64,000 bases of DNA, from the IMG/VR virus record IMGVR_UViG_3300036790_000060, positions 1-64,000 of that record, one strand, 5' to 3'. Shown here piece by piece: positions 2,282 to 29,396 of this stretch. The notes below the pieces were generated by a model, which saw only the letters and a list, made by a program, of their open reading frames with translations, did no database searches and was not told the DNA's origin. Every line of letters begins with the position of its first letter. Position 1 is the stretch's first letter. The stretch is from a virus. The position numbers and the translations under genes were made by a program.

Positions 2282-2472
2282 GGCGATCGCGGCGAGTTCC
2301 GCATCCGGTCGGTCTCGGCCGCGATGTAAGCGACCGCCTCCGCCGCCGGGGTGCCGGTGATCGATATCTGCGGACTGCCGGTGACGTGCACGACGCATCC
2401 GCCGCTACCCTCGTCCGTGACCATCGTGATGTGGTAAGGATTGACGTAATGGATACCGACTTTGATGAACAT
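2278..2472 (-). CDS. Small hypothetical protein
   Basis: MFIKVGIHYVNPYHIT...; fills the gap in the tightly packed operon. Confidence 0.55.
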   Translation of the reverse strand: MFIKVGIHYVNPYHITMVTDEGSGGCVVHVTGSPQISITGTPAAEAVAYIAAETDRMRNSPRSP

Positions 2473-2733: not shown

Positions 2734-3477
2734 TCAGAATTTACACTGACCGCCGCCCGCCGCCTTGTTCCCCGATCTGAAAAAACAGCTATAGCAAAAG
2801 CGGTTCGGCTTCGGCGCGAACGTCTTGTCGTTCAGCATCGGCCTTACCCGCTTTTCCCACTCCTTCTTGAGGCGCGGCAGATCGGCCGGGGTGTACACCT
2901 TCTCGTTGCCCGGTTCCGGATAGATGATCTCGTGGTCGAGGAAGTGGAGGCGCGGGATGATCCGGAGGTTCGGCCCCTTATCGGCATATATGATTAGCCC
3001 CGCCGCCGCGTACAGGTCCAGCTGGAGCATGTAATCCTCCAGGTTGTATTCCGGGCTGAACTTCCCGGTCTTATGATCGACGACCGACAGCGTCATGTTA
3101 TCGCTGAAATACGCGCAGTCGAGCTTAACGCGGAGCCAGCATCCGGCCCAGTCGTTCCACGTCGTCCGGGTCCAGTCCCTCCGGAACGCCCAGGTCTCTT
3201 CGATCGCGATCAGGCCCGGCCGCTTCTTGTAAAGCGCCTTCATCTTCTTGAAGAAGTTCTGGAACAGGCTCAGTTCCGCCGGCAGCTTCTTGATTTCGCC
3301 CTTAATGAACGCATCCGCGAGCTTGTGGATATCGTCGCCGCGTTTCATCGGGGCGGACTGCGGTTCCTTGATCTTTTCCAGTGCCGACATCTTGAGTTTG
3401 AACGGGCACTGATCGTAAGCCTTGTAACGGCTAAACGACCAGCTGGTGATCGTCGTCGGTTTCGCCCAGGCCATCAC
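2734..3477 (-). CDS. PD-(D/E)XK exonuclease (Cas4/RecB-like)
   Basis: WSFSRY..YDQCP, RGDDIH, KLD...VVDHKTGK, QLDLYA and a C-terminal CxxC..C cluster. Confidence 0.85.
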   Translation of the reverse strand: MMAWAKPTTITSWSFSRYKAYDQCPFKLKMSALEKIKEPQSAPMKRGDDIHKLADAFIKGEIKKLPAELSLFQNFFKKMKALYKKRPGLIAIEETWAFRRDWTRTTWNDWAGCWLRVKLDCAYFSDNMTLSVVDHKTGKFSPEYNLEDYMLQLDLYAAAGLIIYADKGPNLRIIPRLHFLDHEIIYPEPGNEKVYTPADLPRLKKEWEKRVRPMLNDKTFAPKPNRFCYSCFFRSGNKAAGGGQCKF

Positions 3478-14209: not shown

Positions 14210-14291
14210 CGAAATTGTGTTGATATAATGAAAAAAGATTTTTGGTTACTGATTGTAATAACCCTGGACAGGGCTATTTCAGACACAGCAT

Positions 14292-14323
14292 AAAAAAAGG
14301 GGCGATCCCGCGAAGGACCGCCC
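14292..14323 (-). terminator. Rho-independent terminator
   Basis: - strand GGGCGGTCC-TTCGC-GGGATCGCCC followed by C and T7. Confidence 0.85.
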
Positions 14324-14384
14324 AAGTTTACAGGGAGGAAACGTCCTAGAAAGCAGAGACCAAACGGCGCCTGCGGGATCATCA

Positions 14385-20379: not shown

Positions 20380-21768
20380 GTGGGTAGAGAGATCGTCGTC
20401 CAGCTTCCTACGTTCCACGCTGGCCAGCTGCGCGCTTACCAGGTCTTCAAAGACAACAAGCGTGTCGCTGGCCGGTGCGGACGACGCTGGGGGAAGACCG
20501 ACTTAGGCAAAATCCTGGCCTCTGACTACGCGGTCAAGGGCCGCTACGTCGGGTGGTTCGCCCCGTCGTACAAGGTGCTGGTCGAAGCCTATTCGGAGAT
20601 CGCCGCGTCCCTGCTTCCGGTCAAGCTGACGTCATCGAAGACCGAAGGCATCATCCGGACGATCCCGACCGAAGGGCGAAGCCACGGCGGACGCATCGAC
20701 TTCTGGACGCTTGAAAACGAGAACGCGGGTCGATCGCGCAAGTATCACCTGGTCATCATCGATGAAGGCGCGTTTACCAAAGCCAACATGATGAAGATAT
20801 GGGAGCAGTCGATTGAACCGACGCTTCTGGACTACGCGGAACTGCCCTACGGCGGCCGGTGCTTAGTGCTATCGAACACGAACGGCATTGATAAGGACAA
20901 CTTCCTCTACCAGATATGCGAACCCCTTCATAAACGTGAAATGGGAACGCCTGGGAAGAAGTATGGTTTCGCGGAGTTCCACGCTCCGACCGAAGAGAAC
21001 CCCTACATGTCCAAGGGGGCGATCGAACTCCTGCGCCAGCGGAAACACCCGTTGGTGTTCAAGCAGGAATATCTGGCCGAGTTCGTTGACTGGTCCGGCG
21101 TCGCGTTCTTTCAGCTGCAGAAGATGCTGGTCGATACCGTCGAAGTCGATGGCGTCCTGACTGGCGGCACCCCGGTGAATTATCCCACCGCCTGCAAGTT
21201 CGTCGTCGCGGTCATCGACACGGCGGTGAAGACCGGATCGGAAAACGACGGAACCGGCGTGTCATACTACGCCGTGATGCACGACCACTTCGACCAGTAT
21301 CGAATGGTCATCCTGGACTGGGATATCGCCCAGATCACCGGCGCCCTGCTTGCCGAATGGATGCCGTCCGTCTACCGGCGCCTGAATGAACTGTCGAAGG
21401 CGTGCAGCGCGCAGTTCGGGTCGATCGGTGCCTATATCGAAGACCGTGGATCAGGCTCTGTCCTGCTTCAGCAGTGCGTTCTGCGCGGGTGGGACGCGAC
21501 ACCCCTGCCCGAAGAACTCACTGCCAAGGGCAAAGACGAACGTGCGATGAACGCGGTCGATCCCGTCTTTCGTGGCGAGGTCAAGATCAGCTACCACGCG
21601 CACGATAAGACATCGACGTACAAGGAAGAGACCAGGAACCATTTCGTGGACCAAATCGTAAGTTTCAGGATCGGCGATCCGGACGCGGCGAAACGGGCAG
21701 ATGATCTGCTCGACACGTTCACGTATTCGATCGCGATCAACTTAGGTGGACCGGAGGGCACGGCGTGA
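20380..21768 (+). CDS. Terminase large subunit
   Basis: Walker A CGRRWGKT, Walker B VIIDEG; nuclease motifs IDTA, IEDRGSG and DDLLD. Confidence 0.95.
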   Translation: MGREIVVQLPTFHAGQLRAYQVFKDNKRVAGRCGRRWGKTDLGKILASDYAVKGRYVGWFAPSYKVLVEAYSEIAASLLPVKLTSSKTEGIIRTIPTEGRSHGGRIDFWTLENENAGRSRKYHLVIIDEGAFTKANMMKIWEQSIEPTLLDYAELPYGGRCLVLSNTNGIDKDNFLYQICEPLHKREMGTPGKKYGFAEFHAPTEENPYMSKGAIELLRQRKHPLVFKQEYLAEFVDWSGVAFFQLQKMLVDTVEVDGVLTGGTPVNYPTACKFVVAVIDTAVKTGSENDGTGVSYYAVMHDHFDQYRMVILDWDIAQITGALLAEWMPSVYRRLNELSKACSAQFGSIGAYIEDRGSGSVLLQQCVLRGWDATPLPEELTAKGKDERAMNAVDPVFRGEVKISYHAHDKTSTYKEETRNHFVDQIVSFRIGDPDAAKRADDLLDTFTYSIAINLGGPEGTA

Positions 21769-21959
21769 TCATCAACAAGCTCAGGACGAATAAGGCGATC
21801 TGCGACGCGCTCGGTATCGATCCATCGAAGGTCAGTAAAGTCACTATCACGCTAGGCAGCGACGCGCCGATGATCGAAGTCCTATGTTACCTGGACGTCG
21901 AAAAAACCGGCAGGCTGGTCGAAGTTCTCTCTAACTGCGAGTTTAGCTGGAAGTCATGA
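21765..21959 (+). CDS. Small hypothetical protein
   Basis: GGAGG RBS; 4-nt overlaps on both sides. Confidence 0.6.
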   Translation: MIINKLRTNKAICDALGIDPSKVSKVTITLGSDAPMIEVLCYLDVEKTGRLVEVLSNCEFSWKS

Positions 21960-23482
21960 GCGGTTTCCAAGGAACGAACACGGCCGAAGGCGGCGAAGGC
22001 AATACCTTCGTCGGCCTGTCGTCGGGCGCCGGATCACAGCTGACCAGGCTGATGCTGTCTGACGACATCGTTCCGGGCGATACGCCGTCCTACCAAACGT
22101 GCAAGATCACCTACACCTACCACCCGCTAGGCGGGAAGATGGTCGACACGCCGATCAAGGTGATGCAGTCCCAGGAACGCGAGATCACGGTTTCGGGCGG
22201 TCCTGAGACGAAGCTAATCCCGGAGTTCAAGCGTGTATGGAAGTCGCTTGCCAGTGTAGGCGCCGACTCGATCATCCAGAACGTTATCCGCACCGCGCGT
22301 ATCTACGGCATCGGTTCCCTGGCCTGCGGCACGCGCGGCATCGGCCAGAACGCGCCGCTCGTCTTCGAAAACATTACCGAAGAGAACGTGTACTTCAACA
22401 CGCTTGACCCGTTGAACACGGCCGGATCGCTAGTCCTTGACCAGGACCCTTCGAGCCCCGACTTCCAGAACCCGACGTCGATCACGTCAGGCGGGAAGAA
22501 CTGGCATGCGTCGCGCACCGTCGTGGTCATGAACGAAAAGCCGATCTACATCGAATTCACCAGTTCGGCGTTCGGCTTCGTCGGCCGGTCGGTTTACCAG
22601 CGCGCCCTGTTCCCGATGAAGACGTTCCTGCAATCCATGATCACCGACGACATGGTGACCAAGAAGTGCGGGCTGCTGGTCATCAACGCTACCGCGCCGG
22701 GTCCGGTCACGAACAACCGCATCCTGAACTTCTTCGGTCTGAAGCGCTCATATCTCAAGGGCGGCGTGACCGGGAACGTCATCACGATCGGCGAAAAGGA
22801 ACAAATCAGTTCCCTCAATTTCCAGAACCTGGAAGGTCCGGCGAAGTTCGCCCGCGACAACGCGCTGAAGAACATCGCCATGGCCGCCGGGATGCCAGCC
22901 AAGCTCCTCGAACAGGAGGAAATGGTCGGCGGCATGGCCGAAGGAACCGAGGACGCGAAGGCGATCGCGCAGTACATCAACGCGATGCGCGAAGAGTCGC
23001 AGCCGATCTATCGGTTTATGGATAAGGTCGTGATGCGCCTGGCCTGGTCCCCGACGTTCTACAAGACGATCCAGAAGGAATTCCCCGAGCTGTACGGCGG
23101 CGTCGATTACAAGACCGCGTTCATCGAATGGGCGAATGCGTTCGAAGCCACGTGGCCGAACCTGCTGGAAGAGCCCGATAGCGAAAAGATCAAGGTCGAG
23201 GAAACGCGGTTCAAGTCAGTCGTCGCCCTCCTGGAAACGCTGGTCCCGTCGCTCGATCCGGAGAACAAAGCCGCCGTGATCGCCTGGGCCGTGGACGAGA
23301 TCAATACGCGCCGCCAGCTGTTCTCCGCGAACCTGGACATCGACGCGAAGAAGCTGGCGAAGTTCGGGATCGAACAGCAGAAGCAGCAGCAACAGATGGC
23401 CCAGCAGGGCGCCGCTGGCGGGGCGGGCGAAGGCGGGGCGAAGGAACCTGCGCCGCCGAAGCCGTTTAGTTCGACGTCATGA
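21956..23482 (+). CDS. Portal protein (DUF1073-like)
   Basis: Size and position after TerL; ARIYG, HASR, GRSVYQR, NIAMAAGMP..LL and GTED motifs. Confidence 0.88.
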   Translation: MSGFQGTNTAEGGEGNTFVGLSSGAGSQLTRLMLSDDIVPGDTPSYQTCKITYTYHPLGGKMVDTPIKVMQSQEREITVSGGPETKLIPEFKRVWKSLASVGADSIIQNVIRTARIYGIGSLACGTRGIGQNAPLVFENITEENVYFNTLDPLNTAGSLVLDQDPSSPDFQNPTSITSGGKNWHASRTVVVMNEKPIYIEFTSSAFGFVGRSVYQRALFPMKTFLQSMITDDMVTKKCGLLVINATAPGPVTNNRILNFFGLKRSYLKGGVTGNVITIGEKEQISSLNFQNLEGPAKFARDNALKNIAMAAGMPAKLLEQEEMVGGMAEGTEDAKAIAQYINAMREESQPIYRFMDKVVMRLAWSPTFYKTIQKEFPELYGGVDYKTAFIEWANAFEATWPNLLEEPDSEKIKVEETRFKSVVALLETLVPSLDPENKAAVIAWAVDEINTRRQLFSANLDIDAKKLAKFGIEQQKQQQQMAQQGAAGGAGEGGAKEPAPPKPFSSTS

Positions 23483-25110
23483 CGACGCTACGCGATATCG
23501 CCCGGACGCTTGGCGTCATCAAGCCATCTCGCGAAGAGAAGCTGGCGGCAATCCTTGATGACCTGTCGTCGGTCGAAGTGCGGATGGACCTCGAATGGAA
23601 CGAGTCCGATCATCCGCGCGCCGCTGACGGCAAGTTCGGATCGGGTGGTGGCGGGTCCGTCGCGCACGGCGCGAAGTCGTATATCAAGAGCCTGGCCGGC
23701 AAGAAGGGCAGCGGCGCAGGGATGATCAAACACATGCTGCAGGCCGGCACCTATAGCAAGGCGGATATTATCGCGGCGACGAAGGAAGTAGGCTTCAACC
23801 TCGGCGGGAACCCGTCATACGCCATTGAAGCGTATCACAAGCAGATGATGAACCCGCCCCCGATCCCGGCGAAGTCTGGGCCGAAGGAAGTGAACACGCC
23901 AACGGGCACCGATCCTGATGGTTCGTTCGCCGCGCACGGCAAGAAGATACTGGCCGAGATCGAAGCGGCGAAGGCAGCGAAGGCGGCGGTTAGTGGGAAG
24001 TCGGCGCAGCAGCAAAAAGCCGTCGCGTCGCTGACTTCGATCGCCGAACTGCCGGATGAGAAAAAGACGGAAAAGTTCAAGGACGCCGCATACAAGTATC
24101 TCCCGTCGAACATCTTTTCAGCGATGAAACCGACGCTCGACCACTTCGAAAACCTGACGGCGGAAAACAAGCCGAAGGTCGAAAGCAAGCTGATGGAGGT
24201 GCTTACCGCGTTCGCCGAGAATGAGGGTAGCGATACGGATACGAATGACATCTACACGGCGCTGATGAAGATTGATCCGATCGCCGGTTCCGGGATGTCG
24301 GTCAACGCGGTGAACACAATGCTCGTCGGCGTGAAAGCCGACTACGCCTCGAAGGCGAACGTGACCGGTTACGCGCCGACGTCCGAAGCCGAGAAGAAGG
24401 TCTACAGCAAGCTATCGAAGGTCGCGCATTACGCCACCGATAGCGGTGCCGTCGCGGAAGACCACGAAGGCAAGGACATCAAAGCGCGGCTGAAGACCAG
24501 CACGAAGGCGATCCCCGGTGACTATTACGCCAAGGTGTCGTCGGCCTACAACGGGAAGAAGAACGTTGGCGATACCCCGCACGTCGGGTCGGCGATGCAG
24601 GACTACGGTAACGAGGTCTGGAACACGTTTGACGAAGAGCAGCGGGGCTCGCTTGATTTGTACAAAGGGTCAGGGTACATGTCGATCAATCAGGCGCTAT
24701 TAAGTGAGAACTTCGATGAGTATGCCAGCAGCGGTGTAAAGTCGCGTATCAAGAACATCGACGCGGCGATGGCAAAGTCAGTCGTTCCGGCCGATACCCC
24801 TGTGTTTCGTGGGATGACTGCCACCCTGAAGGACCTGACCGGCTTCGATGATCCCGACGAAGCCGTGGGCCGCGCGTTCGAACACAAGAACTACGCCTCG
24901 GTGTCGCGGAATATCGAAGTGTCGAAGAACTTCGGCTCGACGACGATGCTGCGGTTCACAATCCCCGCTGGGGCAAACGGCATCGTGCTGGGAAGTCAGT
25001 CGGCGGGCGAAAAGGAGATCGTCCTACCACGGCGCGGTGTGTTCCGGGTGGACAAGGTGACTGGCAATATGGTAGACGTCACCTATTTGGGAGTCCGTGA
25101 GGATGACTGA
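23479..25110 (+). CDS. VIP2/Alt-like (R-S-E) ADP-ribosyltransferase, putatively virion-associated
   Basis: C-terminal Y.GSGY.SIN..L, VFRG, YASVS and EKEIVLPR (ExE); N-terminal WNESDHPRAADGKFG motif. Confidence 0.88.
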   Translation: MTTLRDIARTLGVIKPSREEKLAAILDDLSSVEVRMDLEWNESDHPRAADGKFGSGGGGSVAHGAKSYIKSLAGKKGSGAGMIKHMLQAGTYSKADIIAATKEVGFNLGGNPSYAIEAYHKQMMNPPPIPAKSGPKEVNTPTGTDPDGSFAAHGKKILAEIEAAKAAKAAVSGKSAQQQKAVASLTSIAELPDEKKTEKFKDAAYKYLPSNIFSAMKPTLDHFENLTAENKPKVESKLMEVLTAFAENEGSDTDTNDIYTALMKIDPIAGSGMSVNAVNTMLVGVKADYASKANVTGYAPTSEAEKKVYSKLSKVAHYATDSGAVAEDHEGKDIKARLKTSTKAIPGDYYAKVSSAYNGKKNVGDTPHVGSAMQDYGNEVWNTFDEEQRGSLDLYKGSGYMSINQALLSENFDEYASSGVKSRIKNIDAAMAKSVVPADTPVFRGMTATLKDLTGFDDPDEAVGRAFEHKNYASVSRNIEVSKNFGSTTMLRFTIPAGANGIVLGSQSAGEKEIVLPRRGVFRVDKVTGNMVDVTYLGVREDD

Positions 25111-25258
25111 CGACGCGGCTGACCGCCGTTTTATCATCGAGAAGGGCTCGGTCGTCCCGATCGGGAAGATCAAGCAGACGATTGACCACACGTCCGAAGC
25201 CGACAAGAAGGCGAAGGCCGAGGCCGAACGCGCCCAGCAGATCGATGTCGACGAGTAG
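25103..25258 (+). CDS. Small protein (51 aa) coupled to the ART gene, not in ORF track
   Basis: Hand-translated MTDDAADRRFIIEKGSVVPIGK...IDVDE*; overlaps the ART stop and the MuF start. Confidence 0.5.
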   Translation: MTDDAADRRFIIEKGSVVPIGKIKQTIDHTSEADKKAKAEAERAQQIDVDE

Positions 25259-26096
25259 CCCCCAGACCTTTCAGGAACTGCTGACGGCCGCGATCAACGA
25301 ATTCTCCGAACGCGGATATGATAATCCGGAGCGCGTCCAGCACTGGTTGATGATCCTCCGGAACGCGGCGGAACGCGACCTAGGACCGGAGTGGCAGACC
25401 AACGCTGACGTCCGCGAACAGATGACGCGGCTGTTCGAAAAAGCGACTTCGGTCAACGACGTCAAACGCTACGTCCCGGATATCCAGCCGTGGACGATAT
25501 CGATCGTGAAGCCGAAGGTCAGGCCAGAACTGGACCGGCGCGTCATCGCCTCGGTTAACCTAATCAAGCTGAACCGCAAGACGGCCGTGGAGAATACGCT
25601 TAGGCGCGCTGAAGGGTGGATGACGTCCGTCCCGCCCGGTGGCGTCGAAGATATCGATCGGCGTGAGGTCAAGACGGGGATCACTAAGTCCCTCGCGCAG
25701 CATAAATACGAAGTCCGCCGGGTCACGATCGACCAGTCACATAAGCTCCTGTCGAACGTCCGCGACGTTATCGCGATGGACGCGGGGGCGATCGCCGTCA
25801 TCTGGCATAGCCACTGGCGCGACGCATCGTATAACTACAGGAAGGACCACAAGGGTCGGGACGAACGTGTCTACCTGATCCGCGACTCCTGGGCCCACAA
25901 GCAGGGGCTCGTCAAGCCGGGTCCAGCTGGCTACTTCGACCAGATCACGAAGCCCGGCGAAGAGGTCTACTGCCGCTGCTGGGTGGTTTACATCACGTCG
26001 CCGCGAAAGCTACCCGACGAAATGCTGACTTCGAATGGCCAGGCTTGGATCGAACGCGGCCGGATCGCCGCACAGAACAGGATAGCCGGATCATGA
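25245..26096 (+). CDS. MuF-like minor head morphogenesis protein
   Basis: IDQSHKL, WHSH, R.DH..RD and PGEEVYCRC motifs; ATG 25245. Confidence 0.88.
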   Translation: MSTSSPQTFQELLTAAINEFSERGYDNPERVQHWLMILRNAAERDLGPEWQTNADVREQMTRLFEKATSVNDVKRYVPDIQPWTISIVKPKVRPELDRRVIASVNLIKLNRKTAVENTLRRAEGWMTSVPPGGVEDIDRREVKTGITKSLAQHKYEVRRVTIDQSHKLLSNVRDVIAMDAGAIAVIWHSHWRDASYNYRKDHKGRDERVYLIRDSWAHKQGLVKPGPAGYFDQITKPGEEVYCRCWVVYITSPRKLPDEMLTSNGQAWIERGRIAAQNRIAGS

Positions 26097-26497: not shown

Positions 26498-26704
26498 ATG
26501 CCGCTAGCATCCGGGTCGTCCAAGGAGGCGATCGGTCAGAACATCGCGACCGAACGCCACGCCGGCAAGCCGGAGAAGCAGGCGATCGCGATCGCGTATT
26601 CCGAAGCTGGGAAGTCGCGGAAGGACACGATGGGCCAGGTCCTGAAGGACTGCATGGCGCTCAGCGATCGGTTCGACAAGTTCATGAAGAGCAATAGCCG
26701 ATGA
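26498..26704 (+). CDS. Small head-module protein (DUF6496-like)
   Basis: [37 protein letters not shown] signature. Confidence 0.75.
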
Positions 26705-26949
26705 CGCCGTTCACGTTCCGGCTGCGCGTCCCGATGGACGTCAAGCCGCCGAGCTTCATGCCGCACGCGGTCATGGTCTGCCGTATCCGGGTCGGCATTC
26801 GCACGCACTTCATGGAAGTCACGTTCGAAAAGCTCGGCGAAGACGAACTGATCGCGACGTCGGTTATGGAACTGCCCGACTTCGACGCGATGAAAGACTT
26901 CGAGTTCGGCTGGATGGCTGAGGGCGTGTTCCTCCTGCTGGCCGTATAG
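26701..26949 (+). CDS. Hypothetical protein
   Basis: ATGA coupling; its stop abuts the tRNA 5' end. Confidence 0.5.
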
Positions 26950-27021
26950 GCGCCGCTTTCTGGCGAGGGTCCGGGCTTTCAATCCCAGGACAGCCCGGTT
27001 CGATCCCGGCGCGGCGCACCA
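26950..27021 (+). tRNA. Non-canonical 72-nt tRNA with 8-nt anticodon loop (CT-TTCA-AT); putative quadruplet UGAA decoder
   Basis: Perfect 7-bp acceptor stem GCGCCGC/GCGGCGC, A discriminator, encoded CCA (27019-27021); T-arm CCGG-TTCGATC-CCGG; anticodon arm TCCGGG/CCC-A-GGA; minimal D arm TTC-TGGC-GAG; variable loop CAG. Confidence 0.85.
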
Positions 27022-27036
27022 ATTCGTGAGGACGAT

Positions 27037-27136
27037 ATGACCAAACCCGATACGTGAATACGCGGCTAGAGGCCCACCCCGTCTCCCCAGGCTGACCCGT
27101 TCAACCTCAGGAGATGATCATGCACGTATTCCTTAA
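27037..27136 (+). promoter_or_regulatory. Leader ORF MTKPDT-[TGAA]-YAARGPPRL... with anti-Shine-Dalgarno hairpin (27080-27116)
   Basis: GAGGA RBS 27028-27032, ATG 27037, TGA 27055-27057 plus A; the +1 frame encodes RGPP (27068-27079); CGTCTCC (27080-27086) pairs with GGAGATG (27110-27116). Confidence 0.7.
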
Positions 27137-27476
27137 AGTCAAGATTTGTTCCCTCGCCGCCGAGGCTTCCATCATCCGTCGCGAAGAGCGCCGGTGGAAA
27201 CCGCGCTGGCGGTCCCACCAGGACCAGATGTTTTTCCGGCTGAAAGGACATCGCACCTGCGACGTCCGATCGGAGCAGCGGTCGGCCCTGCTGGCTTACG
27301 GCTTCCTTCGCGGGACGCCGTATCTGGTGATCGAGTCGAAGTGCTATGAAGAGCCGAACTGGGGGCGGGTCGCGAAGATCGTCCGGAAGTTCGGACCGCT
27401 GATATCTGAGACCGACGCCATGAAGGCGGTGTCGGAATGGTCCAAAGTGCCGCTGCCGGTCGCGCTGGCGGCTTAA
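27120..27476 (+). CDS. Basic protein of unknown function downstream of the leader
   Basis: AGGAG RBS 27109-27113, 6 nt from ATG 27120; LKVKICSLAAEASIIRREE...HR..DVRSEQR...LAYGFLRG.PY..IE. Confidence 0.8.
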   Translation: MHVFLKVKICSLAAEASIIRREERRWKPRWRSHQDQMFFRLKGHRTCDVRSEQRSALLAYGFLRGTPYLVIESKCYEEPNWGRVAKIVRKFGPLISETDAMKAVSEWSKVPLPVALAA

Positions 27477-27499
27477 CCCTGATCGCCGGAGAGGCGTTG

Positions 27500-28423
27500 A
27501 TGACGAAGAACGCTGCCGGTGTGATGATCATGTCGAAAGGGAGGGCGCTGCTGCTGCAGCGCTCCTCGACGTCCAGCCATCCGGGCGAATGGTGCTTTCC
27601 CGGCGGCGGGATGGAAGACGGCGAAACGCCTGACGAAGCCGCGTTCCGCGAACTGTTCGAAGAGATCGGCGACCAGGACGTGGGCGAACTCAAGTTCTGG
27701 ATCAGGCGGATCAAGGACGACGTTGACTTCACGACGTTCATCGCCAAGTCGCCGACGTGCTTCGAACCGCGACTGAACGACGAACACACGGCGTTCGCCT
27801 GGATCGATCCGGTGCACCCCGCCGTGAACATGCACCCCGGCGTCAAGATCGCGCTCGACAAGCTATCGATGGACGAGCTCGATATCGCCGACGCGATGGC
27901 GGACGAAGAGCTTTCCAGCCCGCAGGTGTACGGGAACCTCTGGATGTTCGCGATCCGGATCACCGGGACCGGCTTCGCCTACCGGGCAGGGCGGAAGGAA
28001 TACGCCTGGCGGGATACGTCGATCTATCTGACCGATCGGTTCCTGCGCCGTTGCAACGGCCTCCCGGTGACGATCGACCACCCGGACAAGTCTTCGCTCG
28101 ACACGAAGGAATACGAGGATAGGGCGGTCGGTTCCGTCTTCGTCCCCTACTTCAAGGGCGAAGAGGTCTGGGCGATCGTCAAGATACATAACGCTGCGGC
28201 CGCCGCGCTAATGCAAAGCGAGCAGCTTTCCACGTCTCCGGGCGTGGTCTTCCGAGACGCGACCAGCACGAACGCGACGTTCCAGCTAGGTGGTGGCAAG
28301 GCGCTACTGATCGAGGGCAAGCCCGCTCTCCTCGATCATATCGCAATTTGTGAGCAGGGCGTATGGGACAAAGGTGGAGAGCCCGCCGGAGTCGACATCA
28401 ACGGAGTAATCGATAATGGCTAA
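27500..28423 (+). CDS. NUDIX hydrolase fused to DUF2213 (putative prohead protease)
   Basis: Nudix box GGGMEDGETPDEAAFRELFEEIG; GLPVTIDHP, LSTSPGV and DHIAICEQG motifs; position before scaffold and capsid. Confidence 0.85.
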   Translation: MTKNAAGVMIMSKGRALLLQRSSTSSHPGEWCFPGGGMEDGETPDEAAFRELFEEIGDQDVGELKFWIRRIKDDVDFTTFIAKSPTCFEPRLNDEHTAFAWIDPVHPAVNMHPGVKIALDKLSMDELDIADAMADEELSSPQVYGNLWMFAIRITGTGFAYRAGRKEYAWRDTSIYLTDRFLRRCNGLPVTIDHPDKSSLDTKEYEDRAVGSVFVPYFKGEEVWAIVKIHNAAAAALMQSEQLSTSPGVVFRDATSTNATFQLGGGKALLIEGKPALLDHIAICEQGVWDKGGEPAGVDINGVIDNG

Positions 28424-29396
28424 GGAAGGTGAAGACGACGGCCTCCTGGACAAAATCCACGACGCAGTGAAGTCCCTGCACGGCCGGATGGATGCGTTCG
28501 AGAAAGAGCGCAAGGACGAAGACGACCGGAAGGACGCCGAGGAAAAGGTGCGTATGGACAAGGCGCGCCACGACTCCGCCCGGAAGGACAAGTTCGGCGC
28601 CCGGAAGGACGGCGAACGTCATGACGCTTGGAAGAAGCGCCACGACGAAGACGAGAAGGCCATGTGCGATGCCATGGGCGGCGACGATGCCGCGAAGGAC
28701 TCCGCCCGGAAGGATCGTCACGACGCTGAAGAGGAAGAGAAGCGCAACGACGAGGACTTCGAAAAGTGGGCCAAGGAAGAGGAAAAGGAGCCCGAGCACA
28801 AGAAGGACTCCGAGATGTCCTCCAAGCAGGCCGAGTCGCCTGAGATTAAGGACAGCGCTGAAACCGAAAAGGAAAAGGAAGAAGCTGTGAAGGACAAGGC
28901 GCGGCACGACGCGGTCGTTGCCGAGAACGCGGACCTGAAAGCCAGGTTCGAAAAGATGGAAAGCATCATCGCGAACCTGACCCGTGAAACTCCGGCGTCC
29001 GAACGTTCGGCTCTGGCGAACGCGCAGGCTCGCGCCGACAGCGTGGCGGTGATGTTCGCCGATCGCGCCCCGCCCCCGATCGGCGGCGAGACTTCGCTGG
29101 ACTACCGGAAGCGGATGCTCCGCCGGTTCCAGGCGCATTCCCCGCGCTTCAAGGAAACGCGGTTCGACAGCTACGACGAGGCATCGGTCAGCACGGTCGA
29201 GGACGTCATCTATCACGACGCGATCAACCGTGCGCGGGAACCCGGCGACACCCGTCCCGGTCAGCTGATGGCTTTCGAGGAGCGGGACCGCGCAGGCCGG
29301 ACGATCACCAAGTACTCCGGTGACATCCTGGGCTTCATGGCACCGTTCATGACGGGCGCCACGACCGGCACGATCAACCGCAAACCGAACGGCTAA
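28416..29396 (+). CDS. Capsid scaffolding protein
   Basis: Highly charged D/E/K/R coiled-coil; position. Confidence 0.75.
   Translation: MAKEGEDDGLLDKIHDAVKSLHGRMDAFEKERKDEDDRKDAEEKVRMDKARHDSARKDKFGARKDGERHDAWKKRHDEDEKAMCDAMGGDDAAKDSARKDRHDAEEEEKRNDEDFEKWAKEEEKEPEHKKDSEMSSKQAESPEIKDSAETEKEKEEAVKDKARHDAVVAENADLKARFEKMESIIANLTRETPASERSALANAQARADSVAVMFADRAPPPIGGETSLDYRKRMLRRFQAHSPRFKETRFDSYDEASVSTVEDVIYHDAINRAREPGDTRPGQLMAFEERDRAGRTITKYSGDILGFMAPFMTGATTGTINRKPNG

Follow-up and report, generated by a model that had tools for sequence, protein, structure and literature searches.

Bacterial arrest regulators such as ApdA, ApdP, ApcA and SecM consist of a small upstream open reading frame (ORF) that ends in R-[AGDS]-P-P (RAGP in SecM; PMC12992588, PMC10951233, PMC7897499 and PMC10987492, each cited for part of its text), on which a stalled ribosome is thought to open the structure that hides the Shine-Dalgarno (SD) sequence of the next gene. 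A separate literature, on sufD, SufB2, sufJ and the engineered quadruplet tRNAs, describes anticodon loops of 8 nucleotides (nt) with four bases that complement the decoded word (PMC9094753, in part; see also PMC8481270 and PMC4238358). Here we describe a locus of a soil phage in which both layouts occur together. It lies in the first 64 kilobases (kb) of the 72.8-kb IMG/VR virus record IMGVR_UViG_3300036790_000060, and we refer to this whole stretch of 64,000 nt as the window. The locus comprises a tRNA-like gene with an 8-nt anticodon loop, a short leader ORF whose stop codon forms, with the next base, a four-base word complementary to that loop, an RGPP motif behind the stop in the +1 frame, and a gene for an uncharacterised protein of 118 amino acids (aa). 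A first-pass annotation, made from the sequence alone, had proposed that this gene is translated only when the tRNA reads the four bases as one codon. Comparison of the sequences with those of homologous loci makes such a natural four-base-codon translational lock the best-supported reading, to which we assign a probability of about three in four.

In the part of PMC12992588 used here, RGPP gives the most robust arrest among the RAPP-like cores, tolerates varied upstream sequence and is not relieved by EF-P; it is also the most avoided four-residue word in many phyla, and RDPP and RSPP are partly permissive. By that account the window carries the strongest published arrest core. Unlike in ApdA, ApdP, ApcA and SecM, the motif here follows a stop codon and sits in a different frame, the signal sensed would be a tRNA instead of the activity of secretion or insertion, the chain is about 8-20 residues long with no signal or membrane segment, the leader is borne by a phage, and the target is an uncharacterised protein and not Sec or YidC. 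The tRNAs of this family differ from laboratory frameshift suppressors in that they are wild-type genes, are conserved and co-evolve with a target site of their own, in the stop-based words UGA-A and UAG-A and, for many of them, in a reduced D arm; UAGA is also a favoured word of engineered quadruplet tRNAs. The relevant part of PMC9094753 reserves the term 'naturally occurring' for suppressor mutants and anticipates that quadruplet tRNAs in nature will be rare, and the tRNA-Thr1 of yeast mitochondria has an 8-nt loop yet reads triplets (PMC7609411, in part). Crass-like and Lak phages with recoded stop codons likewise carry a CUA, UCA or UUA tRNA in a standard-code host (bioRxiv 10.1101/2021.08.26.457843 and PMC10879173, both in part), but the present genes, unlike those of phages that use codes 4 or 15, read normally under code 11. 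A comparable layout is the synthetic amber-gated leader switch of Liu, Qi, Yanofsky and Arkin (2011), in which downstream expression needs suppression of a leader stop; according to the part of PMC6412442 that describes it, that switch is man-made, transcriptional (tna leader, Rho) and based on triplet UAG, whereas the present one would be natural, translational and, in the window, four-base.

The first-pass annotation knew of no described natural system with this layout, and our literature search likewise found no phage 8-nt-loop tRNA described together with a leader that contains UGA-A or UAG-A. The main text of PMC12992588 does not contain the word 'phage', and the supplementary lists of RGPP and RAPP upstream ORFs in PMC12992588 and PMC10987492 could hold phage cases. 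In the literature searched, wild-type four-base decoding with a dedicated target is known so far only from suppressor mutants and engineered tRNAs.

Anatomy of the cassette in the window

The tRNA-like gene (Table 1) begins one base past the TAG of the preceding ORF and has a perfect acceptor stem of seven pairs out of seven (26950-26956 with 27011-27017), followed by a discriminator A and an encoded CCA. Its T arm has the loop TTCGATC and four of five stem pairs. The anticodon loop CTTTCAAT (26976-26983) is 8 nt long, is closed by GGG/CCC and presents the four-base anticodon TTCA at 26978-26981, as the first-pass annotation had pointed out. The D region is reduced to 14 nt, and the anticodon arm is formed by 3 base pairs (bp), an internal loop and 3 bp. 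At 90% of its threshold ARAGORN calls the element 'tRNA-?(Glu|SeC)(ttca)', 72 nt long. Its acceptor stem, CCA and T arm are those of a canonical tRNA; its D arm, its anticodon stem and loop and its behaviour in standard detection are not. On its sequence, the element is tRNA-like but not canonical. Among the 19 tRNAs of the family that share its short form, the discriminator base is variable (A 8, T 7, G 4), which fits a tRNA whose inserted amino acid is unimportant.

The leader ORF, ATG ACC AAA CCC GAT ACG, lies 15 nt beyond the CCA of the tRNA and is preceded by an SD sequence. Its stop codon and the base that follows form TGAA, the reverse complement of TTCA. When TGAA is read as one codon, translation continues as TAC GCG GCT AGA GGC CCA CCC (YAARGPP, with RGPP at 27068-27079), in a +1 frame that remains open to a TAA at 27134-27136; in frame 0, a TAG follows the TGA after three codons. 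Six codons thus precede the stop and seven follow it up to Pro-Pro. The leader has no hydrophobic segment and no localisation signal of the monitoring-substrate type that characterises arrest regulators. The ending P-D-T-TGAA is common to the window and four relatives (L003, L034, L042 and L062).

Directly after the Pro-Pro codons, the minimum free energy (MFE) fold contains a hairpin that pairs CGTCTCC with GGAGATG, and its 3' arm includes the SD of the 118-aa gene, AGGAG (27109-27113). The computed probability that this SD is unpaired is 0.17 in the free RNA, 0.17 with a ribosome at the leader stop, 0.72 with a ribosome on Pro-Pro and 0.36 when the spacer is shuffled. The leader with its matching TGAA, the two reading frames and the hairpin, all of them named in the first-pass annotation, are therefore present as it described them.

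These elements suggest the following course of events. The tRNA-like RNA would be excised from a late polycistronic transcript, processed and charged, and ribosomes would initiate on the six-codon leader and arrive at the UGA. By default RF2 would release them there, the hairpin would stay shut and the SD of the 118-aa gene would remain hidden. The phage tRNA, with UUCA in its 8-nt loop, would take UGA-A as one step, either by true four-base pairing or by triplet pairing followed by a +1 slip, and leave the ribosome in the +1 frame. There it would make YAARGPP and arrest on Pro-Pro, which supposes that RGPP stalls the ribosome in so short a peptide. The arrested ribosome would cover the 5' arm of the hairpin and free the SD, and the 118-aa protein would be made. 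Given a stable RGPP arrest, four-base decoding of low efficiency could suffice to hold the mRNA open like a latch. Such a device may serve as a sensor of tRNA integrity, of charging or of release-factor activity.

Co-variation of anticodon, codon and frame in the family

The anatomy of the cassette is conserved among homologous loci, and its anticodon, codon and frame co-vary. We compared 77 further loci with homologues of the 118-aa protein (including 73 viral and 3 genomic ones), which with the window gives n = 78. A metagenome scan with the single protein returned one weak and uninformative locus (L079), and a viral scan with the single protein returned L002 only, a doubtful homologue. Entry into the gene is gated by a recoding event in 71 of the 78 loci: 57 have a mini-leader stop followed by an R-x-P-P motif, 11 have a stop or four-base word inside the N-terminal extension of the gene itself (M-T-TAG-... 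in L014, L019, L027 and L063; TGAA with the gene in +1 in L065), and three (L041, L043 and L077) have further four-base words. In the 14 loci of the last two kinds, the recoded site lies in the path of the gene, which implies the same polarity, the tRNA being needed for expression. The remaining seven loci show no recoding pattern (L035, L036, L047, L071, L075 and the doubtful homologues L002 and L066).

ARAGORN very often places a suppressor-type tRNA next to the gene, called either as CTA with a loop of normal size or with one of the four-base anticodons ttca, tcta and ccta. Besides tRNA and leader, none of the genes nearby recurs in more than three loci, which indicates that these two move with the gene as a compact cassette. 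In several large phages (L012, L017, L033, L050, L052, L053 and L057) the cassette lies within arrays of 8-18 ordinary tRNA genes. The read-through frame is open through Pro-Pro into the gene in L012, L017, L040, L059, L067 and L078, so that an N-terminally extended form of the protein is possible there too.

For each locus, the tRNA was assigned by a uniform cloverleaf parse and ARAGORN under a nearest-tRNA rule. Loop size and frame are strongly associated: 8-nt loops accompany frame +1 in 33 loci and frame 0 in one, and 7-nt loops accompany frame +1 in one locus and frame 0 in 23 (Fisher 6e-14, a value that overstates independence given the kinship among the sequences). The lone 7-nt/+1 case (L050) is a misassignment of the nearest-tRNA rule, since the adjacent tRNA has the 8-nt loop CTTTCAAT; the 'TTTA' label of L033 is an error of the same kind, and the loop of its true neighbour is again CTTTCAAT. 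The lone 8-nt/0 case (L029, from OLIVR1) sets CCUA opposite UAG-A, a C:A mismatch with which the fourth pair cannot form. As far as sequence frames go, 33 of the 34 loci with 8-nt loops have either R-x-P-P or the gene itself in +1. Among the 57 arrest leaders, stop word and frame are TGAA/+1 in 34, TAGA/+1 in 7, TAGA/0 in 5, TAGC/0 in 7, TAGG/0 in 3 and TAAA/0 in one. Thus, 8-nt UUCA and UCUA loops accompany UGA-A and UAG-A with Pro-Pro in frame +1 (27 loci pair TTCA with TGAA and four pair TCTA with TAGA), and 7-nt CUA and UUA loops accompany UAG and UAA with Pro-Pro in frame 0; the single ochre leader (L073) has a UUA tRNA beside it.

The pairing extends to words that do not begin with a stop codon, each placed just where a +1 step is required. 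In L041, a UUAU loop goes with a codon-aligned AUAA, after which the +1 frame reads ...RARGPPG; in L077 and L043, an AAUG loop goes with ATG(-TTT)-CATT, after which the gene itself is read in +1. Matched words so placed have chance values of 0.039, 0.012 and 0.012 for L041, L077 and L043, respectively. Both AUAA and CAUU amount to a sense codon plus one base, with a frame-0 stop soon after. The expectations that followed from the first-pass annotation, an 8-nt-loop tRNA conserved beside the homologues (34 loci once two assignments are corrected), co-variation of the stop+1 tetranucleotide with the four-base anticodon (TGAA/TTCA, TAGA/TCTA, ATAA/TTAT and CATT/AATG), and R-x-P-P in +1 for 8-nt loops, are thus borne out, and the 7-nt CTA and TTA loops with frame 0 complete the pattern.

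Relatives of the cassette occur in cultured phages. The Stenotrophomonas phages DLP_5 and Summit carry the leader M-K-TAG-VYKPP-stop, with the tRNA just after the gene and annotated tRNA-Sup-CTA or 'suppressor tRNA'. In the Agrobacterium phages OLIVR1-3, the cassette tRNA bears the annotation tRNA-Val and the gene that of a 'putative structural protein'; in OLIVR1 (MT234338, L082; 284-357), the tRNA publicly labelled tRNA-Val contains an 8-nt loop, GCCCTAAC. In the assembled Phage NCTB, the sequence is MLNN-TGAA-CNRGPP.

The arrest motif is best written R-[GDSA]-P-P; of the 57 leaders, 43 have R at position -2 and 31 have G at position -1. All six Arg codons are used at -2 (CGC 12, AGA 10, CGT 9, CGA 7, CGG 3, AGG 2), and the wobble base of the Pro codon varies as well (CCT 30, CCG 16, CCA 8, CCC 3). 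This synonymous variation, together with the fixed frame relation to the stop, points to selection on the translated peptide and not on the RNA. Counted per kb, mini-ORFs with an SD before them and R[GADS]PP after them number 3.15 within the 135 nt in front of the homologues and 0.014 in the remainder of the loci, both strands included, an enrichment of this leader grammar of about 200-fold.

The distance from Pro-Pro to the gene start is 46-76 nt in 53 of 57 leaders. Among the folded leaders, the SD pairs with positions -3 to +30 from the first Pro codon in 47 of 53 (at least three SD bases paired in the MFE structure), which makes the SD-hiding hairpin that had been noticed in the window a general feature of the family. 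The window hairpin also appears in an MFE folding of leaders picked by their expected frames, a choice that does not enter the mini-ORF densities above. Across the leaders, the SD is unpaired with a median probability of 0.17 in the free RNA, 0.17 with the ribosome at the leader stop and 0.46 with the ribosome on Pro-Pro, versus 0.38 for a shuffled spacer. According to these folding models, the stall position would let the ribosome open the SD-hiding structure, as in the arrest regulators.

Competing explanations

Several observations weigh against a functional lock. The window tRNA itself has mismatches at the outer pair of the T stem (C-C) and in the anticodon arm (C-A), besides its reduced D arm; ARAGORN at its default threshold finds 0 tRNAs in the window, and the only Rfam match is tRNA-Sec at 20.2 bits (E 0.15), under the gathering score. 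The closest relative, L003, has a still weaker anticodon stem and RYPP in place of RGPP. The chain at arrest would have 14 residues, versus longer chains in the published RAPP and RGPP arrests. In the family, three loci have a matching stop yet no Pro-Pro (L036, with TGAA then ...GP-stop; L047 and L075, each with a TAG leader), L034 and L042 have no clear leader start outside the tRNA, L044 sets UUUA opposite UGAA and would require a G-U pair at the second position, and 10 of 68 loci gave no cognate tRNA within the 5 kb examined. The table of leaders was in part curated by eye. Finally, a quick protein tree leaves 38 of 61 inner branches unresolved, with a median end branch of 0.49 changes per site, and is too poorly resolved for independent switches of codon type to be counted.

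The observations on the window tRNA and on L003 would be expected if the cassette, real in the family, were a decaying relic here, with a tRNA that no longer decodes and a gene that is silent or leakily initiated. We consider this unlikely. The short form, with a D region of 12-15 nt, is found in 19 of the 36 parsed 8-nt-loop tRNAs, that of the window included. For these short-form tRNAs, RNAalifold yields an anticodon arm like that of the window, two helices of 3 bp around an internal loop, in which compensatory changes occur, and many pair types are found in their acceptor and T stems (the uniform parse required pairing, so that this variety is partly due to selection). Against decay stand also the perfect acceptor stem with its encoded CCA, the intact leader, RGPP, hairpin and gene, and a protein whose identity to several relatives is 68-72% and in which every invariant residue is retained.

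A second explanation acts at the RNA level only: the tRNA-like fold would be a processing signal for RNase P and RNase Z and the CC-rich stretch an anti-SD, with no read-through of the leader. In line with this, the tRNA is embedded between genes of one operon; a promoter scan found no sigma-70-like promoter on the + strand that separates the genes of the block, no terminator was found on the stretch from the tRNA-like gene to the 118-aa gene's start codon, and the sole terminator-like match on the + strand (27211-27225) lies within that gene. CTCC is, moreover, contained in the Pro codons of 30 of 57 leaders, but in only 30. An RNA signal does not account for a Pro-Pro frame fixed at 0 or +1 relative to the stop by loop size, for Arg and Pro codons that vary synonymously, or for the 14 loci that require recoding to enter the gene itself, and we regard this explanation as very unlikely.

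A programmed +1 frameshift at UGA-A that senses RF2, with an incidental tRNA nearby, would have the layout of prfB (RF2) autoregulation, in which an early in-frame UGA in a short ORF competes with RF2 and the productive frame is +1. Unlike prfB, the leaders have neither a CUU-U slippery site nor a fixed upstream SD stimulator, and the shift appears to be tied to a dedicated tRNA. The last codon before the +1 step is ACG in the window and of 14 kinds among the 41 +1 leaders, none of them a slippery codon. Stop word and frame track the loop of the adjacent tRNA, and amber, ochre, AUAA and CAUU versions exist, all of which makes a prfB-like device highly improbable.

Chance coincidence, or an assembly error in which a one-base insertion created the 8-nt loop (there is a single sequencing run, probably the source), is a negligible prospect given that the same loop occurs in some 30 unrelated contigs, that the leader grammar is so strongly enriched, and that the contig of a second assembler from the probable source run (depth 14.5; not independent data) is identical over 26700-27700 with no indel.

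The translational lock is thus retained as the preferred reading, and the locus is best explained, on its sequence, as a self-contained three-part phage cassette of orthogonal tRNA, leader and target gene.

Genomic setting, protein product and implications

Pfam and PHROGs annotation of the window places the cassette within a block of head-morphogenesis genes (Table 1), where the MuF-like gene is followed by two small ORFs, the tRNA-like gene, the 118-aa gene and a gene for a NUDIX/DUF2213 protein. Under code 11, the reading frames of the terminase, the portal, the MuF-like protein and others are uninterrupted. ARAGORN found no further tRNAs elsewhere in the window or in the remaining 8.9 kb of the record, and TGAA with a long +1 frame behind it is no commoner genome-wide than would be expected from other tetranucleotides and frames. 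As judged from these sequences, there is no sign of genome-wide recoding in this phage, and the leader beside the tRNA appears to be the only evident client of the tRNA. A blastn search of the region against cultured phages gave no match.

Table 1. Features of the window and four-base pairs in three related loci
Feature	Position	Strand	Remarks
tRNA-like gene	26950..27021	+	72 nt including encoded CCA; sequence reading, ARAGORN at 90% threshold
Leader	27028..27058	+	SD GAGGA 27028-27032; ORF 27037-27054; stop TGA 27055-27057; TGAA 27055-27058
+1-frame continuation	27059..27079	+	YAARGPP
Hairpin	27080..27116	+	MFE fold; 5' arm directly after Pro-Pro codons
Target gene	27120..27476	+	118 aa; C-terminus ...VALAA
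Terminase	20380-21768		Head-morphogenesis block
Portal	21956-23482		Head-morphogenesis block
Stand-alone ADP-ribosyltransferase, Alt-like	23479-25110		PF03496, E 3.7e-19; between portal and MuF-like head protein
MuF-like head protein	25182-26096		
L041, UUAU:AUAA pair	2223-2299 and 2359-2440		
L077, AAUG:CAUU pair	2467-2480 and 2787-2863		
L043, AAUG:CAUU pair	2482-2495 and 2809-2885		

Downstream, the NUDIX and DUF2213-like protein (27437-28423) and the next ORF (28416-29396) match two halves of phrog_6216, covering profile positions 3-289 and 322-537, respectively. A TGAA step joining this gene pair was considered and rejected: these are separate genes whose junction is an ATGgcTAA overlap, with no frameshift or four-base site. 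Farther upstream, the record, classed as viral, contains a match to mmgR, an alphaproteobacterial small RNA (Rfam RF00519, 54.9 bits), at 14285-14361 (-), and ORFs and GC skew shift upstream of about 18 kb. Together, these two observations suggest that the record may include the alphaproteobacterial host flank of a prophage.

A search of the protein collection gave 160 homologues of the 118-aa protein, which share the conserved start MxV[YF]LKVKI. Its predicted fold (predicted local distance difference test, pLDDT, 92.9) is all-helical, a long helical hairpin with three short helices. No match was obtained in Pfam, PHROGs, a PDB profile search, Foldseek against PDB or the protein atlas, and Pfam and PADLOC gave none for 32 family members. 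A wide VIA-align structure search returned generic helical hairpins only (Z up to 7.0), and a BFVD structure search returned uncharacterised phage proteins only. The C-terminus ends in -AA in 39 of 120 homologues (KAA in 19, LAA in 2, the window protein ending in ...VALAA), far above expectation. This ending resembles the C-terminal ClpX recognition signal of the ssrA tag. By this analogy, the product may be short-lived, which we offer as a lead. Our best guess is that it is a short-lived factor made only once the phage tRNA works, and that it would act as a timer or as a check on the translation apparatus.

In a wider form, the proposal would be that phages hold natural orthogonal tRNA-codon pairs, at least four of them four-base (UGAA, UAGA, AUAA and CAUU) beside amber and ochre ones, as a lock with an RGPP latch, whose sole client is the leader or N-terminal extension of one small gene and whose labile output could report in real time on the phage tRNA and hence on the tRNA-handling machinery of the host. 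The genetic code would thereby be widened in nature to four-base words, with the latch turning infrequent decoding into lasting expression. We hold this wider form to be as probable as its negation. Since cultured phages (DLP_5, Summit and OLIVR1-3) carry relatives of the cassette, the system is directly testable.

If the lock reading is true, evolution has used codon size as a regulatory channel, and arrest-peptide switches gain a new input, a tRNA. The family would also offer ready-made orthogonal pairs (for UGAA, UAGA, AUAA and CAUU) and compact tRNA bodies for genetic-code expansion. For the phages themselves, it would point to an uncharacterised protein whose production depends on tRNA function.

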